Shown here piece by piece: positions 184 through 61,159 of a stretch of 64,000 nt of DNA. The DNA lies in NCBI GenBank assembly GCA_041640655.1, contig JBEPZV010000003.1:64001-128000 (forward strand), read 5' to 3'. The stretch comes from a bacterium (GTDB lineage: Bacteria > Acidobacteriota > Blastocatellia > HR10). The notes under the pieces are model-generated. The model was given only the letters and a program-made list of their open reading frames with translations, made no database searches and was not told the origin of the DNA. A program made the translations under genes and the position numbers. Numbering within the stretch: position 1 is the first letter of the stretch; each line of letters begins with the position of its first letter.

Positions 184-969
184 ATGAGTCGCACAATCGC
201 CATTGCCAATCAGAAGGGAGGCGTGGGGAAGACCACTACAGCCGTCAATCTCTCAGCCGCGCTCGCCGCACTCGAGCGCCGCGTGCTGCTCGTGGATTTT
301 GATCCTCAAGCCAACGCCACTTCCGGACTCGGGATTCGACGCGGCGCCGTTCGGAAATCCGTCTACCATGCCCTTATCTTCGGCGAGCCGATCGGAAATC
401 TGATCCTGCCGACGGAGCTCCCGACGCTCTGGCTCGTCCCATCGGAGCGGAACCTCACCGGAGCCGAAGTCGAATTGGTGGATATTGAGCGGCGCGAGTA
501 CCGCCTCCGCGAAGCTCTGGATCCCATCCGCCAAGACTTCGACTTCATCTTCATCGACTGTCCCCCATCGCTCGGACTTCTCACGCTCAATGCCTTGACG
601 GCCGCTGACTCCGTCCTTGTGCCTATCCAGTGCGAATATTACGCCTTGGAAGGTGTCTCCGAACTCTGGGATACACTCGTCCGAATTCGACGACAGTTCA
701 ACCCCCGGCTTCAGATCGAAGGCTTCCTCCTCACCATGCACGACGAACGCACCAATCTCTCGCACCAGGTCATGGCCGATTTGCGCGATTTCCTGGGTTC
801 ACAGGTCTTCCAAACGGTCATCCCGCGAAACGTGCGCTTGGCCGAAGCTCCAAGTCATGGGAAGCCTATTATCCTCTATGATGATCGCTCTCGCGGAGCC
901 GAGAGCTACCGAAATCTCGCCCTGGAGGTCCTCAATCATGACGCGAAAGGCCCTCGGCAGAGGACTTGA
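184..969 (+). CDS. parA: Chromosome partitioning ATPase ParA/Soj
   Basis: MSRTIAIANQKGGVGKTTT deviant Walker A, DxDPQANAT, IDCPPSLG, IPRNVRLAEAPSHG; start placed at ATG 184. Confidence 0.97.
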   Translation: MSRTIAIANQKGGVGKTTTAVNLSAALAALERRVLLVDFDPQANATSGLGIRRGAVRKSVYHALIFGEPIGNLILPTELPTLWLVPSERNLTGAEVELVDIERREYRLREALDPIRQDFDFIFIDCPPSLGLLTLNALTAADSVLVPIQCEYYALEGVSELWDTLVRIRRQFNPRLQIEGFLLTMHDERTNLSHQVMADLRDFLGSQVFQTVIPRNVRLAEAPSHGKPIILYDDRSRGAESYRNLALEVLNHDAKGPRQRT

Positions 970-1798
970 AGCTCTTCTTGGAGAAGCCCAAGCCCTCGCA
1001 GAACAGGTCGTCGAGCTGGATATTGATCTCATTGATCCAAGTCCCTATCAACCTCGCACTCGATATGACGAACAGCGGCTGCGCGAGCTGGCTGATTCGA
1101 TCCGCACTCATGGCTTGGTACAACCGATCATCGTGCGTCGCCGTGGCCTTCGCTATGAGATCATCGCCGGGGAACGCCGATGGCGAGCGGCTCAACTGGC
1201 TGGAGCGCTGAAGATCCCGGCCGTCATCCGCGATGTCCCTGATGAACAGGTACTGGAACTCTCGCTCATTGAGAACATCCAGCGCGAAGACCTCAATCCC
1301 ATCGAGGAAGCCCAAGCCTATCAGCGGCTCATCGAACGGTTGGGACTGACCCAGGAGGAGGTCGCCCGCCGCGTCGGCCGCGATCGAACTTCGATCGCCA
1401 ATTCCCTGAGGCTCCTTCGTCTCCCTTACGAAGTCCAGACGCTCATCGAGGAAGGGAAGCTCTCCTTCGGACATGCGAAGGCCCTGCTGAGCTTGAGCTC
1501 GGCCGATGCTCAGAAACAACTGGCCCAGGAGGTCGTCACTCGAGGGCTCTCTGTTCGCGAGACTGAAGCTGCAGTGCGAAAGTGGAACGCCGAAGCTTCT
1601 CCTCAAGTCCGAAGAGGATCGGTACCGACAGACCCTCATCTTCGCGCAGCCGCCGAGCGGCTCGGCCGATACTTGGGAACAAAGGTGCGCATCCTCCACA
1701 GCGCTTCCGGTGGAAAGATCGAGATCGAATATTACTCGATGACCGATCTGGACCGCATCTATAACCTTATCCTGGGGAAAGGAGATGCCACGCCATGA
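938..1798 (+). CDS. parB: Chromosome partitioning protein ParB/Spo0J
   Basis: ALGRGL N-terminal peptide, YQPR, IAGERRWRAA Arg patch, ENIQREDLNPIEEA, HTH; overlaps the parA end. Confidence 0.97.
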   Translation: MTRKALGRGLEALLGEAQALAEQVVELDIDLIDPSPYQPRTRYDEQRLRELADSIRTHGLVQPIIVRRRGLRYEIIAGERRWRAAQLAGALKIPAVIRDVPDEQVLELSLIENIQREDLNPIEEAQAYQRLIERLGLTQEEVARRVGRDRTSIANSLRLLRLPYEVQTLIEEGKLSFGHAKALLSLSSADAQKQLAQEVVTRGLSVRETEAAVRKWNAEASPQVRRGSVPTDPHLRAAAERLGRYLGTKVRILHSASGGKIEIEYYSMTDLDRIYNLILGKGDATP

Positions 1799-2193
1799 GA
1801 CTTCGAAAAGATTCCCCTACAGAAGTCCGCGGATTCCTCGATGATGGGACGGAGATCATCGGAGACCTCAAGTTCTCAGACGTCCTTCACCTTCATGGAC
1901 ACATCAAAGGGAGGGTGATCTCCGAAGGAGAGCTCGTCGTCGGAGAAAAGGGGATCATCGAAGGGGACGTCGAGGTGGGCATTTTGACCCTTGGAGGAAC
2001 GCTCATCGGAAATATCATCGCGAAGAAAAAGGTGCACTTTCTGAATACGGCTCGCATCCGGGGGGATGTCGCAACGCCCATCCTTCGCGTAGATGAAGGA
2101 GCCATGTGGGAAGGAAGCATCACGACCACGCTCCAAGAGAAATCGCCAGAACATTTCGTTCATGCCGCCGGAGAAGTCGAAGCCACTCACTGA
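1795..2193 (+). CDS. Bactofilin (polymer-forming cytoskeletal protein, CcmA family)
   Basis: Beta-helix pattern (IIGDLKFSDVLHLHGHIKGRV, VVGEKGIIEGDV, ARIRGDV, VDEGAMWEGSI); ATGA overlap with the parB stop. Confidence 0.9.
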   Translation: MRLRKDSPTEVRGFLDDGTEIIGDLKFSDVLHLHGHIKGRVISEGELVVGEKGIIEGDVEVGILTLGGTLIGNIIAKKKVHFLNTARIRGDVATPILRVDEGAMWEGSITTTLQEKSPEHFVHAAGEVEATH

Positions 2194-2245
2194 GGGCTTG
2201 ACGCCTTGGGGTCTCAACCCTCACAATCGCTAAGGAGCATGGACT

Positions 2246-2440
2246 ATGGAAGAGCGACAAGATTTGAACGAGACAACGCACGCTCAGGAGCAAGAGGAAG
2301 AAATCACTTATCACGCCGTCGAGAAAGACGGCGAAATCGCCGCCATCTGGGTCATGAAAGGGAGAAAGCATCTGCGCACGATTGACCCACGAAGCGAAGA
2401 AGGACGTCGAATCCTTCAAGCTTATCGGCCGAGCCCATAG
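2246..2440 (+). CDS. Small hypothetical protein (64 aa)
   Basis: ORF preceded by AAGGAG; plausible composition; no recognised family. Confidence 0.55.
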   Translation: MEERQDLNETTHAQEQEEEITYHAVEKDGEIAAIWVMKGRKHLRTIDPRSEEGRRILQAYRPSP

Positions 2441-2537
2441 TATTCCGCATCTCGCCGTGACCGTGGCGCATGCTCCTTCACTGAAGAGCTTGCGCTTGTG
2501 ACCTTCCCCGTATAGCCGAAAAAATTTTCGAATGAGC

Positions 2538-2683
2538 TGTGGATTTTTCTTGCCAAACGGGCGATTTTGTGCTAATCTTTGGCCGGTTTTCAACAGGATA
2601 AGTTATTGAAAATAAAGGCACTTATATGTCTAAAGCCGTTTTTGAGGTCGAGATTTTTGTGGTTGTGGAAATCTTGTGGAAAA
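2538..2683 (+). promoter_or_regulatory. dnaA promoter region with upstream DnaA-box cluster
   Basis: TTGCCA(2550)-N17-TAATCT(2573) with TG extension; DnaA-box-like TGTGGATTT (2538), TTTTCAACA (2587), TGTGGAAAT (2664), TGTGGAAAA (2675); AT-rich. Confidence 0.7.
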
Positions 2684-2792
2684 CTTCGATTACTTACGCC
2701 GATGCAATAAGGTCGGGGCGATTCGCCAGACCCTGGGATTTCCATCTTGCGGAGCAAAGCTGGAGCAGAGATCTCGATAAGGAGTGGGGCGT

Positions 2793-4181
2793 ATGTCACA
2801 TCAAATCTGGGACGCGCTGCTTTCAGCCATAGAGAAGCGGGTCAATCATCACAGCTTCACTACCTGGTTCCTGCCCTTGATCTTCCGGGAGGCGAGGAAC
2901 AACACGATCACCGTCGAAGCTCCTAATGAGATGTTCCGTGATTGGATCACAGAGAACTACACGGATGTGATCGAGGAGGCGCTCGCGGAGCTTCAGCTGA
3001 CAAGCCATACGATCAGGTTCATTGTCAAAGGAGAAGAAGAGCCCTCGGAAGGTACGCCTAAGAGCGAGCCGTCTGAGAATCACGCGAAGCTCTCGCTCTT
3101 TGAGGAGGAAGAAGAGCTGATCATTCCTCCGGCGATGCGATTCGTGGATCTGGAGCCCGTTGAGCTTCCCTTAAATCCGAGATATACCTTCGACACGTTC
3201 GTCGTCGGTTCCTCCAATCAATTCGCGCATGCCGCCGCCTTGGCCGTAGCCGAATCTCCGTCAAAGGCTTATAATCCCTTGTACATTTATGGTGGCGTGG
3301 GACTGGGCAAAACGCATCTCATGCACGCCATTGGCCATGCGATCCGGGCGAAGAACAAACATCTCCGCCTCACCTATGTCTCCTCGGAGCGTTTCATGAA
3401 CGAGCTGATCAATGCCATTCGCTACGATAAGACCCTCGCCTTTCGCGAGAAGTACCGAAATATAGATGTCCTCCTCATTGATGACATTCAGTTCCTCGCC
3501 GGGAAGGAGCGCACGCAGGAGGAATTCTTCCACACGTTCAATGCGCTCTACGATGCCCAGAAGCAGATCGTCATCACGAGCGATTGTCCCCCGCGTGAAA
3601 TCCCCACGTTGGAAGAACGACTCCACTCTCGATTCGAGTGGGGATTGATCGCCGACATTCAGCCCCCCGATTTGGAGACGAAGGTGGCCATTCTCAAACG
3701 AAAGGCCGAACAGGAGAAGATCAGTCTCCCGGATAACGTGGCGCTCTTCATCGCCAGCAAAATCAAATCGAATATTCGCGAGCTGGAAGGCGCTTTGATC
3801 CGCTTGATCGCTTATTCCTCACTGACAGGGCGTCCCATCAGCCTCTCGCTGGCTCAGGAGGCGCTTCGTGGACTCATTGATGAGGAGGAAGAGAAAGCGA
3901 TCACAATCGAGCTGATCCAAAAGACGGTGGCCGATTATTTCGGCCTGCGCGTCTCCGACCTGAAATCGCGGAACAATTCCCGCTCCGTGGCTGAGCCCAG
4001 GCAGATCGCCATGTACCTGTGCAAGCGCCTGACGAAAGCAAGCCTGCCGGAGATCGGTCGAGAATTCGGAGGGAAGCATCATACGACCGTGCTGCATAGC
4101 ATCAATAAGATCAGCGAGCTGTACGAGCAGCGAGAAGATTTCCACAGGATTATCAACAGCCTAATTGATAGACTCAGCTAG
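2793..4181 (+). CDS. dnaA: Chromosomal replication initiator DnaA
   Basis: [78 protein letters not shown]. Confidence 0.99.
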
Positions 4182-4429
4182 ACTTAGTATGGTTTTCCAC
4201 AGACCCCACCTGTGGATGGCTTGTGGAAAAATGTGGAAAGTCTCCAGAAGGCGATTTCTTCCACAGGCTTTCACAGATCTTCCACAGGATTTTCCACAAG
4301 CCGCGATTAGCGTAAGATATTTTGAATCAAGTACTTATCGAAAATCATCCACATTTCCACAGGCCCTACTACGACTACTGGCTTTTATCTATAGCTTTTT
4401 AAAAACTCTAGGGAATAGGGAGAAGTCCT
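4138..4429. other. Replication origin oriC (dnaA-dnaN intergenic region)
   Basis: At least 10 DnaA-box-like 9-mers (e.g. TTATCAACA 4150, TTTTCCACA 4193 and 4290, TGTGGAAAA 4222, TCATCCACA 4345, ATTTCCACA 4353), then GGCCC, trio-like TACTACGACTACT and an AT-rich tract. Confidence 0.92.
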
Positions 4430-5536
4430 ATGCGTGCGACCATAGAGAAGCAGCAGCTTCACCGTGAGCTTCAGTTGGTTCAGACGGTTGTCGAACGTCG
4501 GGCGGTGATTCCGGCGCTCACCACCGTTCGGATGGAGGTCACCGATCACAGGGTCATCTTCACGGGGACGGATTTGGATACGAGCTTGCGGGTGTGGTGT
4601 GAGGCGCGGGAGACCGAGCCTGGGGTGGTGTGTCTTCCGGCTCGGAAGCTTGGCGAGATTGTTCGTCTCTTGCCGGATGAGCCTGTGGTGCTCGAAGGTG
4701 ATGAGGCGCGGGTGGTGGTGCGGTGTGGGCGGGCGCGGTTTCGACTGGCCGCTCATCCGGTGGAGAATTTCCCCGAAGTGCCGACGTTTCCGGACCGTGA
4801 AGCGGGGTCGTGGGGGGCGGAGGCTCTCGGTCGGGCGATCGAGCGTGTGATCTTCGCCACATCGCTTGAGGAGTCCCGGTATACCCTCTCGGGCGTTCAG
4901 ATGGAGTGGTGGGATGGGGGATTTCGGCTTGTGGCGACCGATGGTCATCGGTTGGCGCTTGTGGACGGTTCACCTCAGGCCGTGCCGGAGGAGAGAAGTG
5001 CCTGTTTGATTCATCGCAAGACGATGCAGGAGCTTCTTCGGCTCATTGAGCATGCCGAGGGTGACGCAGAGGTTCACTTTGCTCAGGATGCCCATCACGT
5101 GTATTTTCGGGTTGGTGGGCGGGAGTTGATCTCGCGGCTGCTCACGGGTCAATTTCCGAACTATGAGCTGGTGATTCCGAGGGAGCACGTGATGCGCGCG
5201 TGTGTGGATGCGGCTCTCTTTCGGGATGCGTGTCGCCGCGTCATGACCTTGGCGGATGAGCGGAGCCGTGGGGTCACGCTGAGTTTTTCCGGGGGTGGGC
5301 TCACGCTCACGGCTCGGACGGCGCAAGGGGAAGAGGAGGCGGTTGAGGAGATGCCCAGCGAGACCGATGGGGAGCCGCTTGTCGTCGCGTTCAATGGGGA
5401 GTATCTGTTAGATTTCTTCGATGTCGTGCGCGAGGGCATGGTGGAGGTGGGATTGAAGGATGCGCAGAGTCCGGCCCTTTGGCGACCGGTGGGGGAGTCG
5501 TATGTCTATGTCGTGATGCCGATGCGGCTCATGTGA
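4430..5536 (+). CDS. dnaN: DNA polymerase III beta sliding clamp
   Basis: GTDLD, VATDGHRLA, GQFPNYELVIP, AFNGEYLLD, terminal YVVMPMRL; follows dnaA. Confidence 0.97.
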   Translation: MRATIEKQQLHRELQLVQTVVERRAVIPALTTVRMEVTDHRVIFTGTDLDTSLRVWCEARETEPGVVCLPARKLGEIVRLLPDEPVVLEGDEARVVVRCGRARFRLAAHPVENFPEVPTFPDREAGSWGAEALGRAIERVIFATSLEESRYTLSGVQMEWWDGGFRLVATDGHRLALVDGSPQAVPEERSACLIHRKTMQELLRLIEHAEGDAEVHFAQDAHHVYFRVGGRELISRLLTGQFPNYELVIPREHVMRACVDAALFRDACRRVMTLADERSRGVTLSFSGGGLTLTARTAQGEEEAVEEMPSETDGEPLVVAFNGEYLLDFFDVVREGMVEVGLKDAQSPALWRPVGESYVYVVMPMRLM

Positions 5537-48317: not shown

Positions 48318-49604
48318 ATGGGTTTTGATCTGGCATCGCCGGACTTCTGGAATCGGGAGGCGCTGGAGGCCGAGTTGCGCCGCGTCTTCGATATCTGCCA
48401 CGGCTGTCGGCGCTGCTTCAACCTCTGTCCCTCGTTCAATGTCCTCTTCGAGCTGATTGACGCCAAAGGCGAAGAGGTCGCCAACCTCACCCGCGCGGAT
48501 TTCACGCGGATCGTGGATCTCTGCTATCAGTGCAAGCTCTGCTTCAATCACTGTCCGTACACCCCGCCGCACCGCTGGGATATTGATTTCCCTCGGCTCA
48601 TGCTGCGAGCCAAGGCCGTGGAGGCGCGCGAGCGGGGGATCACGCGGCAGGATCGGTGGCTGGGGCGCACCGACGCGCTGGGACGTTTGGGGAGCCGATG
48701 GGCGCCCCTGGTGAATCTGGCCAATCGCTGGCGACCCGTCCGCGTGCTCCTGGAGAAGGTGATCGGCATTCATCGAGATCGGAATCTGCCCGAGTATCAT
48801 CGCGAGACGTTTCTCCGGTGGTTCCGCGCGTATGAACGGCGGCGAGTTGGCGCGCGCTCGGGAAATGGGAAGGTGGCGCTCTTCTACACGTGCTATGTCA
48901 ACTATCACGATCCGGCCGTCGGGCGGGCCACCGTGCGGGTCCTCGAACGCAATGGGCTGGAGGTCGCCGTCCCGGCGCAGCGGTGTTGTGGCATGCCCTT
49001 CTTGGACGGAGGCGACATCGAGTCGGCGCTCGCCAATGCGCGGGAGAACGTGCGGACGCTCATCGAATTCGTCCGAAATGGATACGATGTGGTGATCCCC
49101 GGACCGACCTGCAGTTACATGTTGAAGCACGAGTATCCCGTCCTCCTCAAAGGTGAGGACGTTCGTCGCGTCGCCGAACGCAGCTTCGACCTCGGCGAGT
49201 ATCTCATGAAGCTTCACAGCGAAGGGCGGCTCGATACTCGTTTCGACCGGGCGGCTCCGCAGCGGATCGCCTATCATCTCCCCTGTCACCTGCGCGCTCA
49301 GAACATCGGCTACAAGTCGCGGGACCTCATGCACCTGATCCCCGGAACGCGCGTTCAGGTGATCGAGCGATGCGCGGGGATTGATGGAACGTGGGGGCTC
49401 AAACGGGAATATTATCCCCTCTCGCTCAAAGTCGCCGACAAGCTCTTCCGTGAGATCGAAGGCGAACCGTTCGATCTGGTCGTCTCCGACTGTCCGCTGG
49501 CGGGATTGCAGATCGCGCAGGGAACCCGGAGGCGTCCCCTCCACCCCATTCAGGTCCTGGCGCGCGCCTATGGTTTAGAAGATGAGGGAGGAGAGCGACC
49601 ATGA
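48318..49604 (+). CDS. Rubrerythrin-associated Fe-S oxidoreductase (4Fe-4S plus CCG domains, GlpC/HdrD-like)
   Basis: CHGCRRCFNLC, CYQCKLCFNHCP, CCGMP, HLPCH, CAGIDG, SDCP. Confidence 0.9.
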   Translation: MGFDLASPDFWNREALEAELRRVFDICHGCRRCFNLCPSFNVLFELIDAKGEEVANLTRADFTRIVDLCYQCKLCFNHCPYTPPHRWDIDFPRLMLRAKAVEARERGITRQDRWLGRTDALGRLGSRWAPLVNLANRWRPVRVLLEKVIGIHRDRNLPEYHRETFLRWFRAYERRRVGARSGNGKVALFYTCYVNYHDPAVGRATVRVLERNGLEVAVPAQRCCGMPFLDGGDIESALANARENVRTLIEFVRNGYDVVIPGPTCSYMLKHEYPVLLKGEDVRRVAERSFDLGEYLMKLHSEGRLDTRFDRAAPQRIAYHLPCHLRAQNIGYKSRDLMHLIPGTRVQVIERCAGIDGTWGLKREYYPLSLKVADKLFREIEGEPFDLVVSDCPLAGLQIAQGTRRRPLHPIQVLARAYGLEDEGGERP

Positions 49605-50185
49605 GGAAGATCACACGGGATGATGTGCGCGACATCGCCGAATACGAGAAGATCCGCCATCAATTTCGGCGCGCGATCATCGAATTGAAGAAGAAGCGGC
49701 GCGTTCAGGTGGGGGATATCGTGACCCTCGTCTTCGAGAATCGCGAGACCGTCCTCTTCCAAATTCAAGAGATGATGCGCGCCGAGCGCATCGTCCACGA
49801 GGACAAGATCCAGCAGGAGATTGACATCTACAACGAGCTGATCCCCGAGGACAACGAGCTGAGCGCGACCATGCTCATCGAAATTGATGATCTCCAGGTG
49901 CTGCGCCAGTGGTTGCCGAAACTCGTCGGCATCGAGGAGCAGGTCTGGTTGCGCATCGGGGATCGGCATGTGATCCGAGCGCTGTACGAACCGGGCCGCA
50001 GTCGGGAGGATAAGACGAGCACGGTGCATTACGTGCGGTTTCGGCTGAGCCCTGAGGAGATTCGCGCCTTCAAGGATGAGGCGCAGCCGGTCGTGCTCGC
50101 CATCACGCACGAGAATTATCACGCGGAAGCGGCGATCCCCGTGGAGGTCCGGCGGGCCTTGGCCGAGGATCTGGTGCTCGAGTGA
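49601..50185 (+). CDS. DUF3501 family protein
   Basis: KKKRRVQVG...FEN.ETV.FQIQEM.RAE, YNELIP, STVHYVRF; typical third gene of the rubrerythrin cluster. Confidence 0.88.
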   Translation: MRKITRDDVRDIAEYEKIRHQFRRAIIELKKKRRVQVGDIVTLVFENRETVLFQIQEMMRAERIVHEDKIQQEIDIYNELIPEDNELSATMLIEIDDLQVLRQWLPKLVGIEEQVWLRIGDRHVIRALYEPGRSREDKTSTVHYVRFRLSPEEIRAFKDEAQPVVLAITHENYHAEAAIPVEVRRALAEDLVLE

Positions 50186-50216
50186 GCGCTCGGAGATTGC
50201 GGCAGGAGGTGTGCCG

Positions 50217-50696
50217 ATGAAACCGAACATTGGTCTCTCGGAGAAGCAACGCGCGGGGGTCGTGGAGATCCTCAATACGCTCCTGGCCGATGAGTATGTC
50301 CTCTACACGAAGACGCGGAACTATCACTGGAACGTCGTCGGGCCGCGCTTCAACGAGCTGCATCGGTTCTTCCAAGAGCAATACGAGGCGCTCGACGAGG
50401 TGGTGGATGAGGTGGCCGAGCGCGTGCGCGCGCTCGGTGGTGAAGCCCTGGGGACGTTGACGGAGTTCCTCAAGCGGACGCGGCTCAAGGAGCATCCGGG
50501 GAAGTACCCTGAAGCGCGCGCCATGCTCGCTAATCTCCTCGAGGATCACGAGGCGATCATTCGCCATCTGCGGGCGGACCTGGAGACGTGCGCCGAGAAG
50601 TATCGCGACATGGGGACGAACGATTTCCTGACCGAACTGATGCAGCGGCATGAGAAGATGGCCTGGATGCTTCGCGCGTTCCTCGAAGAGGAGTAA
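50217..50696 (+). CDS. dps: Dps family DNA-protecting ferritin-like protein
   Basis: KTRNYHWNVVG, LH.FF..QY, DEVAER, HEKMAWML; AGGAGG RBS. Confidence 0.96.
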   Translation: MKPNIGLSEKQRAGVVEILNTLLADEYVLYTKTRNYHWNVVGPRFNELHRFFQEQYEALDEVVDEVAERVRALGGEALGTLTEFLKRTRLKEHPGKYPEARAMLANLLEDHEAIIRHLRADLETCAEKYRDMGTNDFLTELMQRHEKMAWMLRAFLEEE

Positions 50697-51457: not shown

Positions 51458-51535
51458 CCTCGGTTGCCCCATATCGGGATTTCCTGCTATCTTTCGCCGA
51501 GCGCGAAGCATCATGACAAAGGAGGGATGCGTGCT

Positions 51536-51724
51536 ATGCCATCGGGAATTTGCCCGGAATGCGATGGTGAGGTGCATGTCTCATCGGACGTCGAGATTGG
51601 GGATTTCGTGACGTGTCCGGAGTGCGAGGCCGAGTTGGAGGTGATCGAGGTGGATCCGTTGGAATTCGAAGTGGCCTCGGAGCCGGAGGAGGATTTCCTG
51701 GAGGAGGAGGACGAGGAGTGGTGA
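51536..51724 (+). CDS. LysW-like zinc-ribbon protein with non-canonical C-terminus
   Basis: CPEC, GDFVTCPECEAELEV...DP, acidic tail ending EEW rather than EDWGE; AAGGAGG RBS. Confidence 0.8.
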   Translation: MPSGICPECDGEVHVSSDVEIGDFVTCPECEAELEVIEVDPLEFEVASEPEEDFLEEEDEEW

Positions 51725-52804: not shown

Positions 52805-53449
52805 ATGAGGCGAGCGGCCTGGGGGCTCACTCTTGTTCTCAGTCTCTCGCTCTCTGTGGCAGGAGCGATTCAGGAGATCTCTCGGCGTGGAGGGATCACC
52901 GGGTGGGTGAAGGACGAGCAGGGGCAACCGGTGGCGCGCGCGAAGGCTCGCGCCATTGAACCCAGGACGAATCGAACTGTTGCCGAGGCGATGACCGATG
53001 AGGAGGGGAAGTTCGTCCTCTCGAACCTCACTCCCGGTCGCTATGCGCTTCTGGTCTCATCTCCTGATCATGAGCCGGCTCTCGTTCGATCCGTTGAGGT
53101 CAAGTCCGGGCAGGAGACGGTGCTCAAATCCCCCGTTCGACTCCGGCGGGCCGAAGCCTATGCGGTGATCAGCGGAGCGACGTTTGATCCGAACGGGTTC
53201 CTTCTGCCGGGCGTTCGCGTCGTGCTCGAGCGCCTCCCGCTGGACGCGGAGAAGGTGCCGCCGCTTCGGCTGGAGCAGGTCTCCAACTCCAGCGGGGAAT
53301 TCGCGTTCCGCGTCCCGGGCGAGCGCGGTCGCTATCGTCTCACGGCGACGGCGCGCGGTTATGAGCCGGACGTCCAAATCGTAGAGGTGGGCGGATTAGA
53401 GCGCCGTCGCGTCGCCCTGCGGTTGAAGGCACGCCCTCGCGAGAAGTGA
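52805..53449 (+). CDS. Carboxypeptidase-regulatory-like domain protein, secreted
   Basis: Signal peptide; two G.I.G.V.D..G...TD..G.F...PG.Y domains. Confidence 0.82.
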   Translation: MRRAAWGLTLVLSLSLSVAGAIQEISRRGGITGWVKDEQGQPVARAKARAIEPRTNRTVAEAMTDEEGKFVLSNLTPGRYALLVSSPDHEPALVRSVEVKSGQETVLKSPVRLRRAEAYAVISGATFDPNGFLLPGVRVVLERLPLDAEKVPPLRLEQVSNSSGEFAFRVPGERGRYRLTATARGYEPDVQIVEVGGLERRRVALRLKARPREK

Positions 53450-53453
53450 AGCG

Positions 53454-53705
53454 ATGGAGAAGCGGACGGAATTTCTGACAGCGAAGCAGTTGGCCGAGCT
53501 GCTTCAGGTCAGCGAGGCGACGATTCACCGCTTGCGGCGCCGTGGGCGAATCCCGGCCATCGTGCTCACCAAGCGCCTGATTCGATTCAATCTGCGCGAT
53601 GTCAAGGCGGCTCTCGGCTGCGGGCGCGGCCGCGCGGCGGAGGAGGAGCCGCCCTCGGCCGAGCAGCTCTCGTTCGACGACGTCTTCGCGGGGTTTCGGA
53701 ATTAA
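53454..53705 (+). CDS. Excisionase-like helix-turn-helix DNA-binding protein
   Basis: FLTAKQLAELLQVSEATIHRL...GRIPA, IRF....V. Confidence 0.85.
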   Translation: MEKRTEFLTAKQLAELLQVSEATIHRLRRRGRIPAIVLTKRLIRFNLRDVKAALGCGRGRAAEEEPPSAEQLSFDDVFAGFRN

Positions 53706-53717
53706 GCAACATTTTCG

Positions 53718-53746
53718 TTGACAAACTCTCCGATGGCCTCTATCAT
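53718..53746 (+). promoter_or_regulatory. Near-consensus sigma70 promoter of the PuuD-like/DsrEFH/TusA operon
   Basis: TTGACA(53718)-N17-TATCAT(53741). Confidence 0.8.
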
Positions 53747-53886
53747 CTCTCGGCGTGAGGCCCACCATGTTCGCGAGGCCGGTGAAACGCGGATGGAGTG
53801 GCGTCCGAGCCCTGTGGGGCTGTGCCGGCCGAGGTCGGCCCGAGCCGAGCAGACTCCGAGGCCGATTCGGATAGAAAGGAGGCGAT

Positions 53887-54699
53887 ATGGCGACACTGGG
53901 GCTCGTCGCAGGAGTGGTGCTGCTGATGTGGATTGTCGGGCCGGAGCCCGAAAGCTCTACGTTTCACGCTCCGGATGCCACGGCGACGTTCAAGATCTTC
54001 CTTCGATGGGCGCACTTCGTCGCGGGGATCACCTGGATCGGGCTCCTCTATTTCTTCAACCTGGTGAACGTGCCGTTTCTGCAGCGGCTCGATCCGCAGA
54101 CGCGGGGGAAGGTCGTCCCGATCCTCATGCCGCGAGCCCTGTGGTTCTTCCGCTGGGGCGCGATCGTGACCGTCTTGGTCGGGTTGACCTACTATGCGAT
54201 GTACATCCTCCATACGGAGGCCCAGAATGCGGGGATCGGCACCTGGAGCACGCTCTTCAAATGGCTGGCCATTGTGGTGGTGACGTGGGGGATCATCTAC
54301 GCGCTGCTGCAGCCGGTCTCGGGGGCGCTCAATAAGGGCTGGGTCCTCGCGGTCATCGTCATCGCGCTGATCCTGGTCATGTCGGGGGTGATCATCCGGA
54401 TGCTCAGCGCGCCTGGTCCCACGGGGGAGACGCTCGGCAACAAATCGCTCTCCATTGGTCTGGGCGGCGGGTACGGGATCATCATGCTCTTGAACGTGTG
54501 GGGGGTGATCTGGCGGGCGCAGAAGCGGATCATCGCCTGGACCAAGGAGAGCGCGGAGCAGGGGACGCCCATGCCGCCGGAGTCGGCCAAGCTCGCGCGG
54601 CGAGCCTTCTTGGCGTCGCGCATGAACGCGTGGCTCTCGCTCCCGATGCTCTTCTTCATGGGGACGTCTCACGGCGACTACATCTGGTTCGCGAAGTAA
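53887..54699 (+). CDS. DUF989/urate hydroxylase PuuD N-terminal-like membrane protein (no cytochrome c domain)
   Basis: LRWAHFVAGITWIGLLYFFN, ALWFFRWGA..T, IMLLNVWGVIW..QKRII, SR.N..LS.PMLFFM..SH; no CxxCH. Confidence 0.82.
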   Translation: MATLGLVAGVVLLMWIVGPEPESSTFHAPDATATFKIFLRWAHFVAGITWIGLLYFFNLVNVPFLQRLDPQTRGKVVPILMPRALWFFRWGAIVTVLVGLTYYAMYILHTEAQNAGIGTWSTLFKWLAIVVVTWGIIYALLQPVSGALNKGWVLAVIVIALILVMSGVIIRMLSAPGPTGETLGNKSLSIGLGGGYGIIMLLNVWGVIWRAQKRIIAWTKESAEQGTPMPPESAKLARRAFLASRMNAWLSLPMLFFMGTSHGDYIWFAK

Positions 54700-54807
54700 C
54701 TGTCGGCTGCAGGCGGTGAACGTGCGTGAGGCGCGGGAGCCCGCCTCGCGCGGACAGGGCGGGCTTCAAGAGGGGTGTGTGCGCAATAGGTCAGAGGAGG
54801 GGAGAGG

Positions 54808-55134
54808 ATGAGCCGATATTTGATCGTCACCAGTCGCGACCTTCACGAGTATGCGAGCAGCTCGTACATTCTGGAGCTGGCGGGATCGTTGAAGAATCGC
54901 GGGCACGAGGTCACGCTCTATCTGGTCGAGAACGGCGTCCTCGCTGCTCGAAAGGGGGCGCAGCTGGCCGCGCGGTTGAACGAGCTGAGTCGGGCGGGCG
55001 TGACGGTGCTCGCCGAGGACGTCTCGGCCAAGGCCCGGGGCATCGAGCAGTTGGCCGAGGGCGTGCGCCTCTCGAACATGGATGAGTTGGCGGACCTTGT
55101 CGTGGACGGCTGCGACAAGGTCATCTGGTATTAG
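54808..55134 (+). CDS. DsrE/DsrF/DsrH-family protein (DsrH/TusB-like)
   Basis: VTLYLVENGVLAA, VLAEDVSAKARGI, KVIWY; no Cys at the DsrE catalytic position. Confidence 0.8.
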   Translation: MSRYLIVTSRDLHEYASSSYILELAGSLKNRGHEVTLYLVENGVLAARKGAQLAARLNELSRAGVTVLAEDVSAKARGIEQLAEGVRLSNMDELADLVVDGCDKVIWY

Positions 55135-55216
55135 CGCACCCCGCGAGGGGGCGCGTCTTGATCCGCGCGAGGTGATCCTCGGCGCGGGGATCTCGAGGAG
55201 GGAGGAGGTGAGCGTC

Positions 55217-55642
55217 ATGGCGCAACCCAATGGCGCGAAGACCGTCGCCATCGTCCTGGCGACCGGATCCTACGAGCGCGAGGCTCCGACGACCGTCCTC
55301 CGCTTGGCGGAGAAGTTGCTGCAGCGGGGGGTCAACGTCAACGTGTGGGCATTTGAAGAAGCCGTCACGCTGACCAATAAGGACCAGATTGATCACAGCG
55401 AGCCCGGTGCCCTGCAAGGCATCCTGGGCGAGAAGCACTCGCACGTGAGCAAGTACATTGACATGCTGCTGCGCGCGGGACTGCATGGGGCGAAGCTCGA
55501 CTGGGTCTCGTGTATCCTCTGTGTGCAGGAGCGCGGCGTGGAGAAGCACCAGATGAATGCGGTGACGATCGGAACGCTCGGTGACCTCTGGAAGTTCATC
55601 CGGGCGGCCGATCGCGTCATCACGATTCCCTCGTATCGGTGA
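55217..55642 (+). CDS. DsrE family sulfur-relay protein (DsrE/TusD-like) with CxxC
   Basis: TGSY, VNVWAFEEAV, SCILCVQERGV, GTLGDL...I..ADRVIT. Confidence 0.8.
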   Translation: MAQPNGAKTVAIVLATGSYEREAPTTVLRLAEKLLQRGVNVNVWAFEEAVTLTNKDQIDHSEPGALQGILGEKHSHVSKYIDMLLRAGLHGAKLDWVSCILCVQERGVEKHQMNAVTIGTLGDLWKFIRAADRVITIPSYR

Positions 55643-55661
55643 TCGGGGGTGAGGAGGGGCT

Positions 55662-56051
55662 ATGGCGGATAAGACGCTCGTGATCTTCGAGAAGCCGATC
55701 TACTTGTGCATGGAGCCGGTGGATCCACACCTGTTCGCCACGGCCTTCGGCGTGGTGGAGACGCCGGTCCAGGTGAACGTCCTGCTGCGCGATTCGGCCG
55801 TGACGTATGCCGTCGAGCGCCAGGACCTGAAGGGGGCGAAGATTCTCGGCGTGGATGTGCAGGAGTTCGACACCAACCCGGCTCGCGTCGTGAAGTTCAT
55901 GCTGGAGCACGGGGGACAGGTCTACGTCGTGCGCGAGGATGCCGAAGCGCGGGGGATCGCGCCCACCGATCTCGTCTCGGGCGTTCAACTCGTCTCGCGC
56001 GAGGAGACGGTAGGATTGATCGAGAACCACGATGCCGTGATGGTCTGGTGA
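55662..56051 (+). CDS. DsrE family protein (DsrF/TusC-like)
   Basis: VNVLLRDSAV.YA...Q, VYVVREDAEARGI, HDAVMVW. Confidence 0.78.
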   Translation: MADKTLVIFEKPIYLCMEPVDPHLFATAFGVVETPVQVNVLLRDSAVTYAVERQDLKGAKILGVDVQEFDTNPARVVKFMLEHGGQVYVVREDAEARGIAPTDLVSGVQLVSREETVGLIENHDAVMVW

Positions 56052-56311
56052 TGACTGAGGTGAACTGCGATCAGCTCCGCGCGGAGAAGACGCTCGACGT
56101 CCGAGGGCTCTTCAATCCGATTGATTGTCGGAGCCTCGGCGTCATCAAGCTCGCGCTCCAGGAGATGCGACCGGGGCAGGTCCTGGAAGTCTTGGCCAAC
56201 CGGTTCCAGCAGCGCGAGATTCAGGCGTGGGTGCGGAAGTTCTCCCATCGCCTCCTGCGGGAGGTGGATGAGCAGGGGCTGGTGAGGATCTACATCGAGA
56301 AAGGGCGCTGA
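56051..56311 (+). CDS. TusA/SirA-like sulfur carrier with non-canonical motif
   Basis: TLDVRGLFNPIDC, KLAL.EM.PGQVLEVLA, I.AW, IYIEK; TGATG coupling to the upstream gene. Confidence 0.8.
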   Translation: MTEVNCDQLRAEKTLDVRGLFNPIDCRSLGVIKLALQEMRPGQVLEVLANRFQQREIQAWVRKFSHRLLREVDEQGLVRIYIEKGR

Positions 56312-56409
56312 CGTGGACGACGCCTGTTGTCGGGGTATTGAGGACGCGCGCGGAGATCGAGAGGCTCTCGGTGAGGGAGGGGGCGTCTCCTCCATAAGGG
56401 GGTCGGCGG

Positions 56410-57831
56410 TCAGTCCTCCCAGTGCTCTTCTCCATCGAAATGGAGGACGAGCGGTTCGCCATCCACGACCGTCTCCAAGTGCACGTCGCGTCCCCAGAGC
56501 TTGTAGACGTACTCCAGGGTCTTCTTGGCGTACTCAATGTCGAGTTCGATCCCCTCGTATCGGTGGCGCAGATAGAGCTCTCGGTTCCCGTTGTAATCCC
56601 CATCGAGCACTTCGATGACGGGGAAGCCGAAGTTCGTCATGTCGGCGACCATCTGGTCGCGCACGCGCTCCCAGGTCTTATCGGTGATCACCCATTCCTC
56701 TTCGTCCCGCAGCTCGAAGATGTAGAGATCCAAGTCTTCGACCAGTTGCCGGGTCAGGTAATTCCGGATGAACGAGATGTCGTTCTCCAACTGGCGGACC
56801 TCGAAGATCTTCTCTCGCCCCTTCCCCGGTTCGCGTCCGAATTTCTCGATCTCTTCGGGAGTCGGATGATCCCACCGCCGCTCGATGTCCTCGAAGATCT
56901 TGAACCCGACGTAGTAGGGATTGAGGCTCCCCTTGCGAGGGGAGACGACGGCCGCGTGCAACTGGGCGAATTCGACGAATTCTTCATCGCTGAGGTCCAG
57001 CTCCCGGAGGATGCGCGTGTGCCAGTAGCTGGCCCAGCCCTCGTTCATGATCTTCGTCTGCAGTTGGGGGACGAAATATTCCATCTCCTCGTGAATCATC
57101 GCCATGATGTCGCGCTGCCAGGGTTCCAACACCGGCGAGTGTGTCATGATGAAGCGCACCAGATCCTTCTCCGGTCGGGGGGGGATACGACGCAGCGCGT
57201 CCTCCTCTTCCTCCACCGTGGAGACCTTCTCCTTCTTCAGCTCATCCAGGGCGAAGAGGTCATCGTACTTCCCGGGCTTGGGCGCGGGCGTCTTCGGCTT
57301 CTCCGGAGCCTCGGCGCGTTCCTCCCGGATGAAGAGATCGGGATTGATGTGCTCCTGGATCGAGAGTACGGCATCGAGGAACTCTTCGACCGTCTTCCGC
57401 CCGTACTTGAACTCGTACTCGCGGATCCGCTCGGCGTGCGTCACCGCCTCGTCCACCATCCGACGGTTCGTGCGGGAGAAGTAGATGTTGTTCTTGAAGA
57501 AGTCCACGTGGGCGATCACGTGGGCGATGATCATCTTGTTCTGGATGAGGGAATTCCCTTCCAGGAGGAAGGCGTAGGCCGGATTCGCATTGATCACGAC
57601 CTCGTAGAGCTTGGAGAGGCCCAGATCGTACATGAGCTTCATCTTATGATAGGCCTTGCCGAAACTCCAATGCGAGTAGCGTCCCGGCAGAGCGTAGGAT
57701 CCGATCTCGTAGATCACCGTCGCCGGGACGATCTCGAAGTGGATGGGGAAGGGGTCCAGGCCCAGTTCGCACGCCTTCTCCCAGATCTGCTCGATCGCCT
57801 TCTCCAGGACCTTGATCTCCGCGTCGCTCAT
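56410..57831 (-). CDS. spoVR: SpoVR/YcgB family protein
   Basis: [52 protein letters not shown]. Confidence 0.95.
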
Positions 57832-58988
57832 ACGGTCTCTCCACGCCGACCGAAGAAGGCTTTCAGGGCCGGATAGACATCCTCTTTCCGATCGATCCGA
57901 ACGCCCACGAAGCGATCCTTGTTCTTGAGGCGCTCGTTGAAGATGGAGAGCAGCGCGCCGCCGGAGCGCCGATAGCCAGCGTACTCCTCCTCGCCGATCT
58001 CGCCGTAGCCGAAGAGGTTGCAGGTGGCGATCAGCTCGTCAGCCAGGCGAACCGCCTCGTCATTGTCCGAGTAGTAGTTATCGCCGTCGGAGAAGTGGAA
58101 GGGATAGATGTTCCAGTCCTTGGGGTTGAACCGCTCGCGGATGATCTCCAGCGCGAGGCGATAGGCCGAGCTGACGACCGTGCCGCCCGATTCCCCTTGG
58201 GTGAAGAACTGCTCCTCGGTCACCTCCTTCGCCTCCGTGTGATGCGTGATGAAGACGACCTTCACGTTGTCGTATTTCGTCCGCAGGAAGCGCACCATCC
58301 AGAAGTAGAAGGAACGCGCGATGTACTTCTTGAACTCCCCCATGGAGCCGGAGACGTCCATCATGGCGATGACGACGGCGTTGGTCTCGTAGCGGATCTC
58401 CTCATCCCAACTCTTGAAGCGCAGATCCTCCTTGCGCAGCGGACCGATTCGGGCCGTGCCCGTCTCCTTCGCCATGCGCTTCATGTTCTCCAAGAGCGTC
58501 CGGCGCTTATCGAGGTGGGGGAGGATGCCCGTCTTGCGCACTTCGCCGAAGCGAAGCTGGCGGGAGTGCACGGCCTGCTTGCTCTTCTCCTCCAGGTAGG
58601 GGAGTTCGAGGTCCTCGAAGATGAGCTTGGCGATCTCATCAATCTCGACCTCGGCTTCGTAGTAATCCACGCCCGGCTGATCGCCCGCGCCAGGGCCGCG
58701 TCCGGGGCCCTGCCCCTCTCCCTCGCGCGCGATCACGTCGCCCACGCGGGAGCCGCCCGGGCCTTGCCCGACGTGCTTCTTCTTGCGGTAGTCGTATCGG
58801 AACTTGTACTCCTCCAGCGAGCGGATCGGGATGCGAATGGTCTTCTTCCCATCCGAGAGGATGATGGACTCGTTGGCGACGATGGAGCCGAGATTCCTTC
58901 GAATCGCCTCGCGGACGCGCTCCTTATGGCGCTCCTGATCGAGGTATCCCTTACGTTGCAGCGACCAATCATGCCGATGAACGAGCAT
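57828..58988 (-). CDS. yhbH: YhbH/YeaH (DUF444) VWA-type protein
   Basis: [41 protein letters not shown]. Confidence 0.93.
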
Positions 58989-59032
58989 CGGACATCCTCC
59001 CCACGGGCGCGCGCGAGGGGCCCGACGCGCCC

Positions 59033-60967
59033 TCAGGCTCGCGAGAGCAAGGAGCCGACGTAGTTGAGCAGCTCATTGGCGCACACGGAGCAGTAGCCGT
59101 GTTCCCGAATCAACCGATCAATCACCTCGTTGAGGCGTCGGAGCTGATCCGGATCGGCCGTCTTGCTCGTCGTCGTGATGCGCACGACGTCCTTCAGATC
59201 GGCGAAGATCTTCTTCTCGATGGCCTCGCGCAGCCGCTCGTGCGACCGGTAATCGAAGGTCCGCCCCTTGCGCGCGTAGCTGGAGATGCGGATCAGGATC
59301 TCCTGCCGGAAGGCATTCTTCGCGTTCTCGGAGATGCCGATCTGCTCCTCGATCGAGCGCATCAGTTTCTCATCGGGCTCGACCTCCTCCTCCGTGATCG
59401 GGTCCTTGAGCTTCTCCTTATTGCAATAGGCCTCGACGTTATCCAGATATTTATCGCAGAGGGTGCGGGCCATCTCCTCGAAGGAGTAGACGAAAGCGCG
59501 CTGGACCTCATTCTTGGCGATCTCATCATATTCTTTCCGCACCATAGCGATGAGGTTCAGGTAGCGCTCGCGATCCTCGGCGGAGATGCCCGTATGTTGA
59601 TCGAAGCCGTCGCGGATGGCGCGCAGCGCATCAATGGGGGTCAGGCAGGTGATCCCATCGCGCACGAGGGCGCTGGAGAGCCGATTGATGATGTAGCGGG
59701 GCGAGATCCCCTCCATCCCCTCCCGCTCGGCCTCCTCGCGCAGCTCCTTCACGTCTTTGGCCTTGAAGTCGTCCACGTCCTGACCATCGTAGAGCTTCAT
59801 CTTCTTGATGAGGTCGATGTTCTGGCGCTTGGAGGGTTGCAACCGCGTGAGGACGGCGAACATGGCGGCCACTCGCAGCGTGTAGGGCGCGATGTGCACG
59901 TGCTTGGGTGCTTCGCTCTGATCGAGCAACTTCTTGTAGATCTTCTCCTCGTCGGATATGCGCAGATTATACGGCACGCGGATCACGATGATGCGGTCCT
60001 GCAGAGCCTCGTTCTTCTTGTTCGCCACGAAGGCGTTGTACTCGTTCTCGTTCGTGTGCGAGATGATGACCTCGTCGGCGTAGATCATGGCGAAGCGACC
60101 GGTCTTGATGGACTGCTCCTGCGAGAGCGTGAGCAAGCTGTAGAGGAACTTCTCGTCGCATTTGAGCATCTCGATGAACTCCATGATGCCGCGGTTGGCG
60201 ATGTTCAGCTCCCCATCGAAGCGATAGGCGCGGGGATCGGACTCCACGCCGACTTCGCCGATAACGGCCAGATCCACCGATCCCGTCAGCTCCGTGATGT
60301 CCTGGCTCTTGGGGTCGGACGGGGAGAAGGTCCCAATGCCGATGCGCTCCTTCTCGGAGAAGACGATACGCTCGACCAGGACGTCCTCGTGTCGCCCGTG
60401 GTAGACGTGTTCGAGGTTGTACTGGCAGCGGGGACAGAGATCGCCCTCGATGTAGATCCCGTAGTGGCGCTCGATCTCCGGGCGCAGATCGTGCGGGATC
60501 AGATGCAACGGCTCCTCGTGCATGGGACATCCCTTGATCCCGTAGAGGGCGCCCTCATCGGTGCGCGTGTACTGCTCCAGCCCGCGCTTGAGCAGGGTGA
60601 CGATCGTGGACTTGCCGCCGCCCACCGGCCCCATCAGCAGCAGAATGCGCTTGCGCACCTCCAGGCGTTGCGCGGCCGACTTGAAGTACTCGACGATCTT
60701 CTCGATCGCCTCGTCAATGCCGAACAACTCCTTGGAGAAGAACTTGTACCGCGTGACCTCGTTGGGCTGCCCCTCGTTGATCTTCTCCACGCCGGCGGCC
60801 AGGATCATATCGCAGATGCGCGCGTGCGCCAGGCGGGCGATCTTGGGGTTCTGCGTCACCAGCTCGAAGTACTCGCGGAAGGTGCCCTCCCATCGGAGCT
60901 TCTCCCGCTCCCGGCGGTGTCGTTCCAGAAGCTCGGCGATGTTCAGCTTCTTGTTCTTCTCCTCCAT
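59033..60967 (-). CDS. prkA: PrkA/YeaG AAA+ ATPase (annotated serine protein kinase)
   Basis: LLLMGPVGGGKST, CPMHEEPL, SQDI.EL.GS, G.ESDPRAY.FDGELN.ANRG..EF.EM.K; start at MEEK. Confidence 0.96.
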   Translation of the reverse strand: MEEKNKKLNIAELLERHRREREKLRWEGTFREYFELVTQNPKIARLAHARICDMILAAGVEKINEGQPNEVTRYKFFSKELFGIDEAIEKIVEYFKSAAQRLEVRKRILLLMGPVGGGKSTIVTLLKRGLEQYTRTDEGALYGIKGCPMHEEPLHLIPHDLRPEIERHYGIYIEGDLCPRCQYNLEHVYHGRHEDVLVERIVFSEKERIGIGTFSPSDPKSQDITELTGSVDLAVIGEVGVESDPRAYRFDGELNIANRGIMEFIEMLKCDEKFLYSLLTLSQEQSIKTGRFAMIYADEVIISHTNENEYNAFVANKKNEALQDRIIVIRVPYNLRISDEEKIYKKLLDQSEAPKHVHIAPYTLRVAAMFAVLTRLQPSKRQNIDLIKKMKLYDGQDVDDFKAKDVKELREEAEREGMEGISPRYIINRLSSALVRDGITCLTPIDALRAIRDGFDQHTGISAEDRERYLNLIAMVRKEYDEIAKNEVQRAFVYSFEEMARTLCDKYLDNVEAYCNKEKLKDPITEEEVEPDEKLMRSIEEQIGISENAKNAFRQEILIRISSYARKGRTFDYRSHERLREAIEKKIFADLKDVVRITTTSKTADPDQLRRLNEVIDRLIREHGYCSVCANELLNYVGSLLSRA

Positions 60968-61159
60968 AGCCTGCCCTCCTCGCCCTTCCCCGCTCGGGGA
61001 GAACGGGTGGACGTCTCCTGAAGAAAAAAATTCCGGATGTCCAAAGAGCGATTGGTTTGGTCTCGGTCCCAAAGATCGGCGTGTGTGTCCCGCTGTCCGC
61101 GAATTCGTCAATCAGCGCTTGGCATGCTCAGGCTCGACGCGCGAGCCTGATCGCCGGTT

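Follow-up and report, generated by a model that had tools for sequence, protein, structure and literature searches.

A rare DsrE-family gene cassette with a non-canonical TusA-family partner, a candidate sulfur relay of Acidobacteriota, Nitrospirota and other lineages

The window analysed here is a 64,000-nucleotide stretch of the forward strand (positions 64,001 to 128,000 of contig JBEPZV010000003.1, assembly GCA_041640655.1) from an acidobacterium of the class Blastocatellia. Its positions 53718 to 56311 hold a row of five genes, three of which, hereafter A, B and C, form a cassette of DsrE/DsrH-fold proteins that is the subject of this work. All five lie on the plus strand behind a sigma-70-type promoter (TTGACA-17 nt-TATCAT, 53718-53746, plus strand) that agrees with the consensus at 11 of 12 positions. 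The first gene, MEM (53887-54699), encodes a DUF989/Urate_ox_N membrane protein of 270 amino acids (aa) without cytochrome c domain. It is followed by A (54808-55134), a 108-aa DsrE/DsrH-fold subunit, B (55217-55642), a 141-aa DsrE-family subunit, C (55662-56051), a 129-aa DsrH/DsrF-like subunit, and TusA* (56051-56311), an 86-aa TusA-family protein whose start overlaps the stop of C as TGATG. Ribosome-binding sites of the GGAGG type precede MEM, A, B and C. A preliminary description of the locus had read it as a near-consensus promoter followed by five co-oriented genes with strong ribosome-binding sites, among them a DUF989 membrane protein devoid of cytochrome c and three DsrE-family paralogues, and all of this was borne out by the coordinates above and by Pfam.

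Pfam assigned A to both DsrE (47.9 bits) and DsrH (37.9 bits), B to DsrE (35.3 bits) and C to DsrH (30.4 bits), the DsrE score of the latter (20.5 bits) remaining under the cut-off. In a 14-sequence alignment, Cys99-x-x-Cys102-x-Gln-Glu-Arg-Gly of B is invariant, as are His60, His74 and His90, and this motif reads CILCVQERG in the window. Cys99 aligns with the active-site Cys78 of DsrE from Allochromatium vinosum (2hy5_A), through a weak profile match (E 0.49), and B thus holds a cysteine at the active-site position of DsrE/TusD proteins. The identity of B across phyla ranges from 59 to 96%. A and B are paralogues, and profile comparison places the ‘VSC..RG’ column of A on Cys99 of B; the residue found there in A is Ala74 in the window, alanine likewise in its relatives, and cysteine in most Nitrospirota homologues. 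The previous statement that only the middle paralogue carries this cysteine is therefore true for A, B and C of the window but not in general. C displays a strongly conserved to invariant EKPI.L..EP.DPH stretch and no conserved cysteine.

The last gene of the row had been described as encoding a TusA-like carrier, which holds for its family and its coupling but not for its active site. TusA* exceeds the gathering cut-off of Pfam TusA (PF01206, 37.7 vs 28.6 bits) and is joined to C through TGATG, but it lacks the CPxP motif, whose cysteine is characteristic of the TusA active site (Tanabe et al. 2024). At this place the window reads NPIDC, and the TusA* sequences overall NP[IV]DC. Asn22, Pro23, Asp25 and Cys26 are invariant among 12 sequences; in the HMMER alignment Asn22 sits on the CPxP cysteine of TM0983, and Cys26 stands four residues past that position. 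The asparagine at the CPxP cysteine had gone unnoted in the preliminary description, as had the cysteine of Nitrospirota A, and a fifth, unlinked gene and an HdrD-like gene that are both described below. In the window's own genome, no TusA-family match other than TusA* passes the Pfam cut-off. TusA* is itself rare, with 43 clusters recovered by word search and 20 profile matches at E<=0.001 among 1.84 billion representatives, at least two of which are spurious. These two, P0234 (2391 aa) and P0237 (904 aa), were rejected as TusA; they are long, cysteine-rich surface repeat proteins built of ~35-residue cysteine-containing repeats (…FTNASGCDSVVTLHLTV…), of which the TusA* profile matched up to 18 stretches.

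Homologues of B form 62 clusters among 5.8 billion proteins and come from Acidobacteriota, Nitrospirota (Leptospirillum, Manganitrophaceae and Troglogloeales), Chloroflexota, Omnitrophota and one Bathyarchaeia metagenome-assembled genome (MAG). By the names of the homologues, the cultured Leptospirillum ferriphilum is among the carriers. We fetched 62 loci of Acidobacteriota, Nitrospirota (Leptospirillum and Manganitrophaceae among them) and Omnitrophota, of which species-representative genomes supplied 21 and metagenomes 41, two collections that may overlap, and counted for each gene only those loci whose contig reaches far enough. The 11 loci with a B at least 93% identical to that of the window were taken as its own lineage, leaving 51 others. 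A adjoins B in every locus (54/54, of which 11/11 in the own lineage and 43/43 outside), C does so with the same counts, and TusA* accompanies the cassette in 49/52 (11/11 and 38/41). A fifth gene of ~136 codons lies directly after TusA* in 30/33 of the other loci and in 0/10 of the own lineage, and MEM adjoins the cassette in 11/11 own-lineage loci and in 0/32 of the others. According to these counts, the core is made up of A-B-C, TusA* and one further DsrE-family protein, the fourth of that family; the membrane gene belongs to the acidobacterial version only. The neighbourhood search proposed beforehand for DUF989 with three DsrE genes and TusA thus recovers the linkage of A-B-C with TusA* as conserved, but that of DUF989 in the own lineage alone. 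No description of such a cassette was found in the literature and, with its constant non-canonical TusA-family and fourth DsrE-family partners, it is apparently undescribed. This agrees with the earlier proposal of an undescribed DsrEFH/TusBCD-like cassette, which is neither of TusBCD type nor Dsr-linked.

The fifth gene, whose place directly 3' of TusA* is the arrangement of Nitrospirota and Omnitrophota, was assigned by Pfam to DsrE/DrsE_2 in 9/9 sequences tested. Its orthologue in the window's own genome is unlinked (contig C96, 1958-2377; 42-51% identical) and adjoins a DAHP-synthase-family gene. The protein carries a single invariant cysteine, within C[TS]SS[ML], and a second one six residues on in 4/9 sequences. 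It is neither a DsrE2 nor a DsrE3A, its NCBIfam DsrE2 scores being 16.4 and 25.6 bits vs a cut-off of 210; DsrE3A carries a Cys-X7-Cys motif (Liu et al. 2014).

The distribution of the cassette is rare and patchy, with 10/301 sampled Nitrospirota and 1/401 sampled Acidobacteriota, the latter being the window's own genome. Across 201 genomes of the class, it is confined to the window's genus (the own genome, 4 other full copies and a contig-end fragment). A second type of A-B-C triplet was found in 24 of these 201 genomes, one of them unpublished (G198), all from other Blastocatellia (loci L037-L047), with a B 32-37% identical. It retains Cys99, Cys102, His60, His74 and ERG and, in the 8 genomes read, the same gene order. 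In these eight, no TusA*, fifth gene or MEM lies nearby, the TusA* profile matched 0/5 second-type genomes, and the surroundings of the triplet follow no pattern. In one such locus (L042), a gene of the SBP56 (selenium-binding/methanethiol-oxidase) family stands directly downstream of the triplet. The window's genus holds the first type only, and its sister genus (G030) the second type only.

A quick tree (LG+G4) of concatenated A, B and C was computed for the window and 23 loci having all three genes as single hits, leaving aside L009, L016 and L021, every metagenome locus, and L044, a second-type locus in which tblastn gave no match to C. The cassette forms one clade, with the second type on a separate long branch. 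The window's clade is sister to 14 Nitrospirota rows (Shimodaira-Hasegawa-like approximate likelihood ratio, SH-aLRT, 90) rather than nested within them, and Omnitrophota are basal; since the acidobacterial clade is sister to Nitrospirota and not inside it, no donor can be named. Furthermore, the composition of the cassette (GC 62-63%, and 82-86% at third codon positions, GC3) matches that of the flanking genes and thus bears no sign of recent transfer. According to record titles, the acidobacterial carriers come from hot springs. Two loci show a gene split over two frames, A in a Manganitrophus chromosome (L009, 7602-7924) and B in a MAG (L021, 1873-2279), owing to a frameshift or a sequencing error. 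The locus of L001, labelled ‘uncultured Clostridia bacterium’, is syntenic with the window at 84-96% identity in 9/10 proteins and 68% in the tenth, so that its bin label looks wrong.

The partners of the known relays were searched for in the same genomes. DsrC/TusE (PF04358) gave no match in the window's own genome (89.8% complete) or in 5/5 other carriers, which include two whole chromosomes, by a search that matched its target in Escherichia coli. The genome search for tusE, dsrC and mnmA, as previously suggested, thus returned no DsrC/TusE, and it returned an MnmA fragment at the end of contig C89. Within the whole 64-kb window, Pfam detected no DsrC/TusE, MnmA, sulfite reductase, Sox, cysteine desulfurase or purine-catabolism gene among the 54 larger open reading frames (small ones were not scanned), in line with the absences of dsrC/tusE, mnmA, dsrAB, sox, cysteine desulfurase and purine catabolism already listed for it. 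A tblastn search of the own genome gave no YedE. In a sample of 101 Nitrospirota genomes, YedE (PF04143) occurs in 0/5 carriers, though 53/101 genomes have it. The dsr linkage of type I systems does not appear among the flanking genes scanned, dsrAB not having been searched genome-wide. The own genome encodes six rhodanese domains. In addition, the NCBIfam equivalog cut-offs for TusB, TusC, TusD and TusA are all missed: A scores 39.8 bits vs 49.2 for TusB/DsrH, B 21.2 vs 89.25 for TusD, and C 34.8 vs 49.2 for TusB and 14.7 vs 94.15 for TusC. By these scores, and with no TusE/DsrC acceptor found in the genome, the cassette does not qualify as a TusBCD of the E. coli type.

We consider the chances evenly balanced that the A-B-C cassette represents a heteromeric persulfide relay of a lineage of its own, whose acceptor would be neither DsrC/TusE nor Dsr. 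Its sequences suggest a lineage apart from both the E. coli tRNA relay and canonical DsrEFH. A, B and C would encode a heteromeric carrier of the DsrEFH/TusBCD type with two dedicated partners: TusA*, in which the reactive cysteine would have moved by one helical turn (NP[IV]DC for CPxP), and the fourth, single-cysteine DsrE-family protein, unlinked in the window's own genome. Sulfane sulfur would pass as cysteine persulfides among Cys26 of TusA*, Cys99 of B and Cys98 of the fifth protein, while Cys102 of B might resolve or hold the persulfide, and it would be delivered to an acceptor other than DsrC/TusE or Dsr. Outside the acidobacterial carriers, the system would not require the DUF989 membrane gene. 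A cysteine-persulfide relay is the most likely mechanism as judged from two elements, family resemblance and conserved cysteines. From the gene set, its conservation, its residues and the absences reported above, we infer complex formation, sulfur transfer, the direction of this transfer and the kind of acceptor. The relay with a different acceptor put forward in the preliminary description stands as a proposal; no acceptor was found.

Several observations weigh against such a relay. The genes flanking the cassette are unrelated between the loci scanned, second-type loci included, so that no acceptor can be named; the neighbours include a sigma-54 activator, an FGE-sulfatase-like gene, CobS, Memo/AMMECR1 with a radical SAM gene, ribonucleotide reductase, an aldo-keto reductase, LMF1/DCC1 and a Fur-DUF2292-porin set, among others. 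In 3/41 outside loci (L120, L135 and L136), A-B-C is adjoined by neither TusA* nor the fifth gene, and the neighbouring genes offer no clue. TusA* is deprived of the cysteine position that underlies all studied TusA chemistry. The loss of the active-site-position cysteine of A in the window's lineage implies that the carrier cysteines are not all needed. The conservation of B across phyla, three invariant histidines included, is unusually high for a relay and would also be compatible with enzymatic activity or metal binding. The AlphaFold2 monomer of B is poor (mean predicted local distance difference test, pLDDT, 54) and unfit for a fold search. Prediction of a complex of A, B and C with TusA* gave a score of 0.00 and the verdict ‘no answer’, and was not used either way.

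In a live rival reading, unlikely in our view, the CxxC and histidines of the A-B-C heteromer would serve redox chemistry or the handling of metals, for instance as a thiol-disulfide protein or metal chaperone of thermophiles or metal oxidisers, and TusA* would be a non-catalytic or differently reactive partner. It finds support in a conservation of B that is extreme for a carrier, with His60, His74, His90, Cys99, Cys102 and QERG invariant, and in the retention of His60, His74 and CxxC by the second type. The missing canonical cysteine of TusA* and the dispensable cysteine of A point the same way, as does the fact that YchN, the solved chain nearest in sequence, was deposited as a hypothetical protein. 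Yet the characterised DsrE/TusA members described in the papers cited here are all sulfur or thiosulfonate carriers, 3/5 of the proteins considered here keep one invariant cysteine at or near the carrier position, and metal-related genes do not recur beside the cassette.

The preliminary description had also made a PuuD-like membrane protein a member of the system, a proposal at odds with the locus counts (11/11 own-lineage loci, 0/32 others). MEM is a lineage-specific neighbour, acquired or retained in acidobacterial carriers only, and it is not part of the conserved core. It matches Pfam Urate_ox_N/DUF989 (PF06181) at 49.6 bits over part of the profile (65-239 of 295). Across 18 homologues, His43 and His262 are invariant and no cysteine is conserved. 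Its AlphaFold2 model shows seven long helices (mean pLDDT 78.9), for which Foldseek retrieved nothing from the PDB at E<=0.001 (best E 0.24). PuuD itself is an eight-helix DUF989 protein fused to cytochrome c (CXXCH) in a purine-catabolism context, and cytochrome-less DUF989 proteins have been reported in completely different gene contexts (Doniselli et al. 2015, PMC4562309). The identification of MEM as a PuuD urate oxidase was rejected on the partial profile match, the missing cytochrome c, the seven long helices and the lack of purine genes in the window. The family of ~270-aa DUF989 proteins to which MEM belongs comprises at least 6941 clusters vs 62 for B, being at least a hundredfold commoner than the cassette, and is common in Acidobacteriota.

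Within the window's lineage, MEM and the cassette have a promoter in common, and at least partial co-transcription of the two is probable. The 3.3 kb between 53300 and 56600 hold no other site scoring like the promoter at 53718-53746, where shuffles would give 0.5. The promoter block is invariant in 3 close relatives (L001-L003), whereas the 134-nt leader (5' untranslated region) downstream of it has diverged. Directly upstream of the locus stands an HTH_17/excisionase-type DNA-binding gene (53454-53705, plus strand; Pfam HTH_17, 45.5 bits), which tblastn also located upstream of MEM in L001-L003 and in 5/8 own-lineage metagenome loci, and which was not found near MEM in two relatives of the same family or order (G030 and G005). 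The 108-bp spacer between MEM and A contains a G+C-rich stem-loop (GAGCCCGCC ... GGCGGGCT, 54738-54770, plus strand) without T-run. This hairpin had been proposed as a possible terminator, but the terminator scan called none, the stem-loop included; the stem nonetheless persists in 4/4 relatives, with variable stem length and loop. Its stability does not exceed that of shuffles (z -0.45), and neither does that of the 5' untranslated region and both spacers. An Rfam scan of 53400-56500 (E<=10) revealed no riboswitch, with 4 matches at chance level. One metatranscriptome contig spans 54633-55081, bridging the MEM-A gap through the stem-loop, and in a second run a contig from a relative passes from the last part of MEM into the beginning of A; such contigs cannot prove a single transcript, and an RNA library may contain DNA. 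Two further runs (X3 and X4) held little or nothing of the locus.

That the DUF989 protein is nonetheless a working part, coupling the carriers to membrane redox or transport at least in Acidobacteriota, appears to us quite unlikely. This possibility would account for the constant place of MEM directly before A in all 11/11 own-lineage loci, for the sole strong conserved promoter lying upstream of MEM, and for the metatranscriptome contigs bridging the gap. Furthermore, one acidobacterial MAG holds homologues of MEM (69%) and TusA* (70%) on the same 23,781-base contig, four accessions apart. By comparison, in G030, whose MEM is about as divergent (71% identical), the other genes that flank MEM in the window are missing, save for a 34%-identical VWA match. 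DUF989-family genes are also present elsewhere in the genome of 4/5 Nitrospirota carriers. These are, however, short genes (162-168 aa), MEM adjoins the cassette in none of the other lineages, its family vastly outnumbers that of B, and G030 and G005 possess MEM without the cassette, among other neighbours. The lack of a conserved cysteine in MEM, the stem-loop kept in the spacer and the limits of the contigs as transcript evidence speak in the same direction. In the Nitrospirota carriers concerned (L052-L057), the short DUF989 genes of the Manganitrophaceae stand in tandem as a pair, without linkage to the cassette.

The closest published system in architecture is the yeeE-tusA-dsrEFH type II (YTD) cluster, in which three unannotated DsrE-fold genes share an operon with tusA and adjoin yeeE/yedE; it was described from 985 genomes, mostly with reductive dsrAB, one subtype occurring mainly in Nitrospirota (Plum-Jensen et al. 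2026). Membership of the cassette in this family, which we hold to be improbable, would explain the same assemblage of three DsrE-fold genes and a TusA-family gene beside a membrane-protein gene, as well as the Nitrospirota carriers. The cassette does have three DsrE-fold genes in synteny (54/54 loci) and a conserved active cysteine (Cys99 of B, invariant), but no synteny with a canonical tusA and yeeE/yedE. A YTD-like cluster in the Nitrospirota genome L077 served for comparison: its genes are TusB-like (H-like), TusD-like (E-like, CVCESC..ARG), TusC-like (F-like), a TusA with CPYP, and YedE, in this order. By hhalign, its E-like protein aligns with B at 70% probability, CxxC on CxxC, and with A at 88%, with 28% identity in both cases, so that the relationship between the cassette and YTD is real but remote. 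The CPYP of the L077 TusA has no equivalent in TusA*. B has no match at E<=1e-5 in 290/301 Nitrospirota, yet YedE occurs in 53/101; the own genome lacks YedE by tblastn, and DsrC is present in no carrier tested. The carriers named in record titles are organisms known for the oxidation of iron and manganese rather than for sulfate reduction or sulfur disproportionation. The supplement text of the type II paper, which contains no list of the 985 genomes, names no Leptospirillum, Manganitrophus or Acidobacteriota. As judged from the YTD-like cluster of L077, the cassette appears to be separate from type II.

A more ambitious version of the separate persulfide relay, to which we grant little probability, would combine a third self-contained DsrEFH-type persulfide lineage with an acidobacterial wiring to electron exchange between DUF989 and carrier-bound sulfur. 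A two-cysteine B, a TusA with relocated cysteine and a single-cysteine DsrE would then supply an acceptor that has no relation to Dsr or to tRNA thiolation, in hosts that would be aerobic iron- or manganese-oxidising Nitrospirota and thermophilic Acidobacteriota, and the wiring to the cytochrome-less, two-histidine DUF989 protein would be a new membrane-coupled route for sulfane sulfur. Least probable of all, and very much so, is that the cassette is simply the TusBCD and TusA of its organism for tRNA 2-thiouridine synthesis, as the automatic Joint Genome Institute (JGI) name of many B homologues (‘tRNA 2-thiouridine synthesizing protein D’), the DsrE/DsrH/TusA folds and the MnmA fragment of the own genome might suggest, since all four NCBIfam equivalog cut-offs are widely missed (for TusD, 21.2 vs 89.25 bits), TusE/DsrC was found in 0/6 carrier genomes, TusA* is without CPxP, and the rarity of the cassette (10/301 Nitrospirota, 1/401 Acidobacteriota) contrasts with the finding of the MnmA family in 12/14 control genomes.

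Elsewhere in the window, 4 kb upstream of the cassette, the gene of an HdrD/GlpC-like protein (48318-49604, plus strand), which combines an Fe-S dicluster and two CCG domains, is followed by a DUF3501 gene (49601-50185, plus strand) and a ferritin-like gene. This trio (48318-50696, plus strand) is separated from the cassette by genes on both strands. Its co-occurrence with the cassette was considered and dropped, the difference in DUF3501 frequency between Nitrospirota carriers (6/10) and non-carriers (82/291) being weak and confounded by kinship. A LysW-like zinc-ribbon protein with an acidic tail (51464-51724, plus strand) stands alone, with no lysine or arginine biosynthesis genes adjoining. 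Directly downstream and convergent with the cassette lies a set of PrkA kinase, DUF444 (YeaH-like) and SpoVR-like genes (56410-61111, minus strand); SpoVR and DUF444 are also downstream in L001-L003 (tblastn, PrkA not being among the queries). The grouping of parB, dnaA and dnaN (617-5536, plus strand) indicates that the window probably includes the region of the chromosomal replication origin.

DsrEFH-type complexes are used to tell in which direction sulfur metabolism runs, and it took until 2026 for a second type to be recognised (Plum-Jensen et al. 2026). A further lineage without DsrC, Dsr and YedE would show that this architecture serves beyond sulfur oxidation and tRNA thiolation, and would caution against annotating such genes as ‘TusBCD’ or ‘DsrEFH’. 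With its cysteine shifted by four residues, TusA* would also show, in a natural variant, how far sulfur transfer depends on the CPxP geometry. The practical gain remains modest pending the identity of the acceptor.

Compared with known systems, the cassette shares with the E. coli TusA-TusBCD-TusE relay (tRNA s2U34) a trio of DsrE/DsrH-fold proteins with a TusA-family protein, and a cysteine (Cys99 of B) at the active-site position of TusD/DsrE. It departs from this relay by the absence of TusE, the missed NCBIfam cut-offs, a different gene order and different subunit sizes, a TusA* without CPxP, and a rare distribution. The DsrEFH of A. vinosum (2hy5/2hyb), operating with Rhd-TusA-DsrE2 and DsrC, likewise associates a TusA-type carrier, a DsrE-fold heteromer with the same active cysteine position and an extra single DsrE-type protein; it differs by the weakness of the profile match to B (E 0.49), by its DsrC and by a dsr linkage that is not seen in the scanned loci. 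With PuuD, the membrane urate oxidase, the likeness is restricted to the DUF989/Urate_ox_N profile, MEM having no cytochrome c, only a partial match and no purine genes nearby. YchN of E. coli (1jx7) displays the same C-x-x-C-x-x-x-RG pattern (CKTC vs CILC), aligned with the CxxC of B over the C-terminal 42 residues in a weak, partial match (E 0.04), and is a single-gene homo-oligomer. As for the YTD cluster, the membrane protein beside the cassette is DUF989 instead of YeeE/YedE and is confined to the acidobacterial lineage, the TusA-family motif is NP[IV]DC instead of CPxP, a fourth DsrE-family gene is added, DsrC was found in none of the tested carriers, the heterotrimer is reported at 33 kDa vs a summed A+B+C of 378 aa, and the identity to L077 proteins is 28%. 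Both nevertheless comprise three adjacent, poorly named DsrE-fold genes with a TusA-family operon partner and a membrane-protein gene beside them, one subunit with a conserved active cysteine, which in the E-like protein of L077 also belongs to a CxxC, and an occurrence in Nitrospirota.

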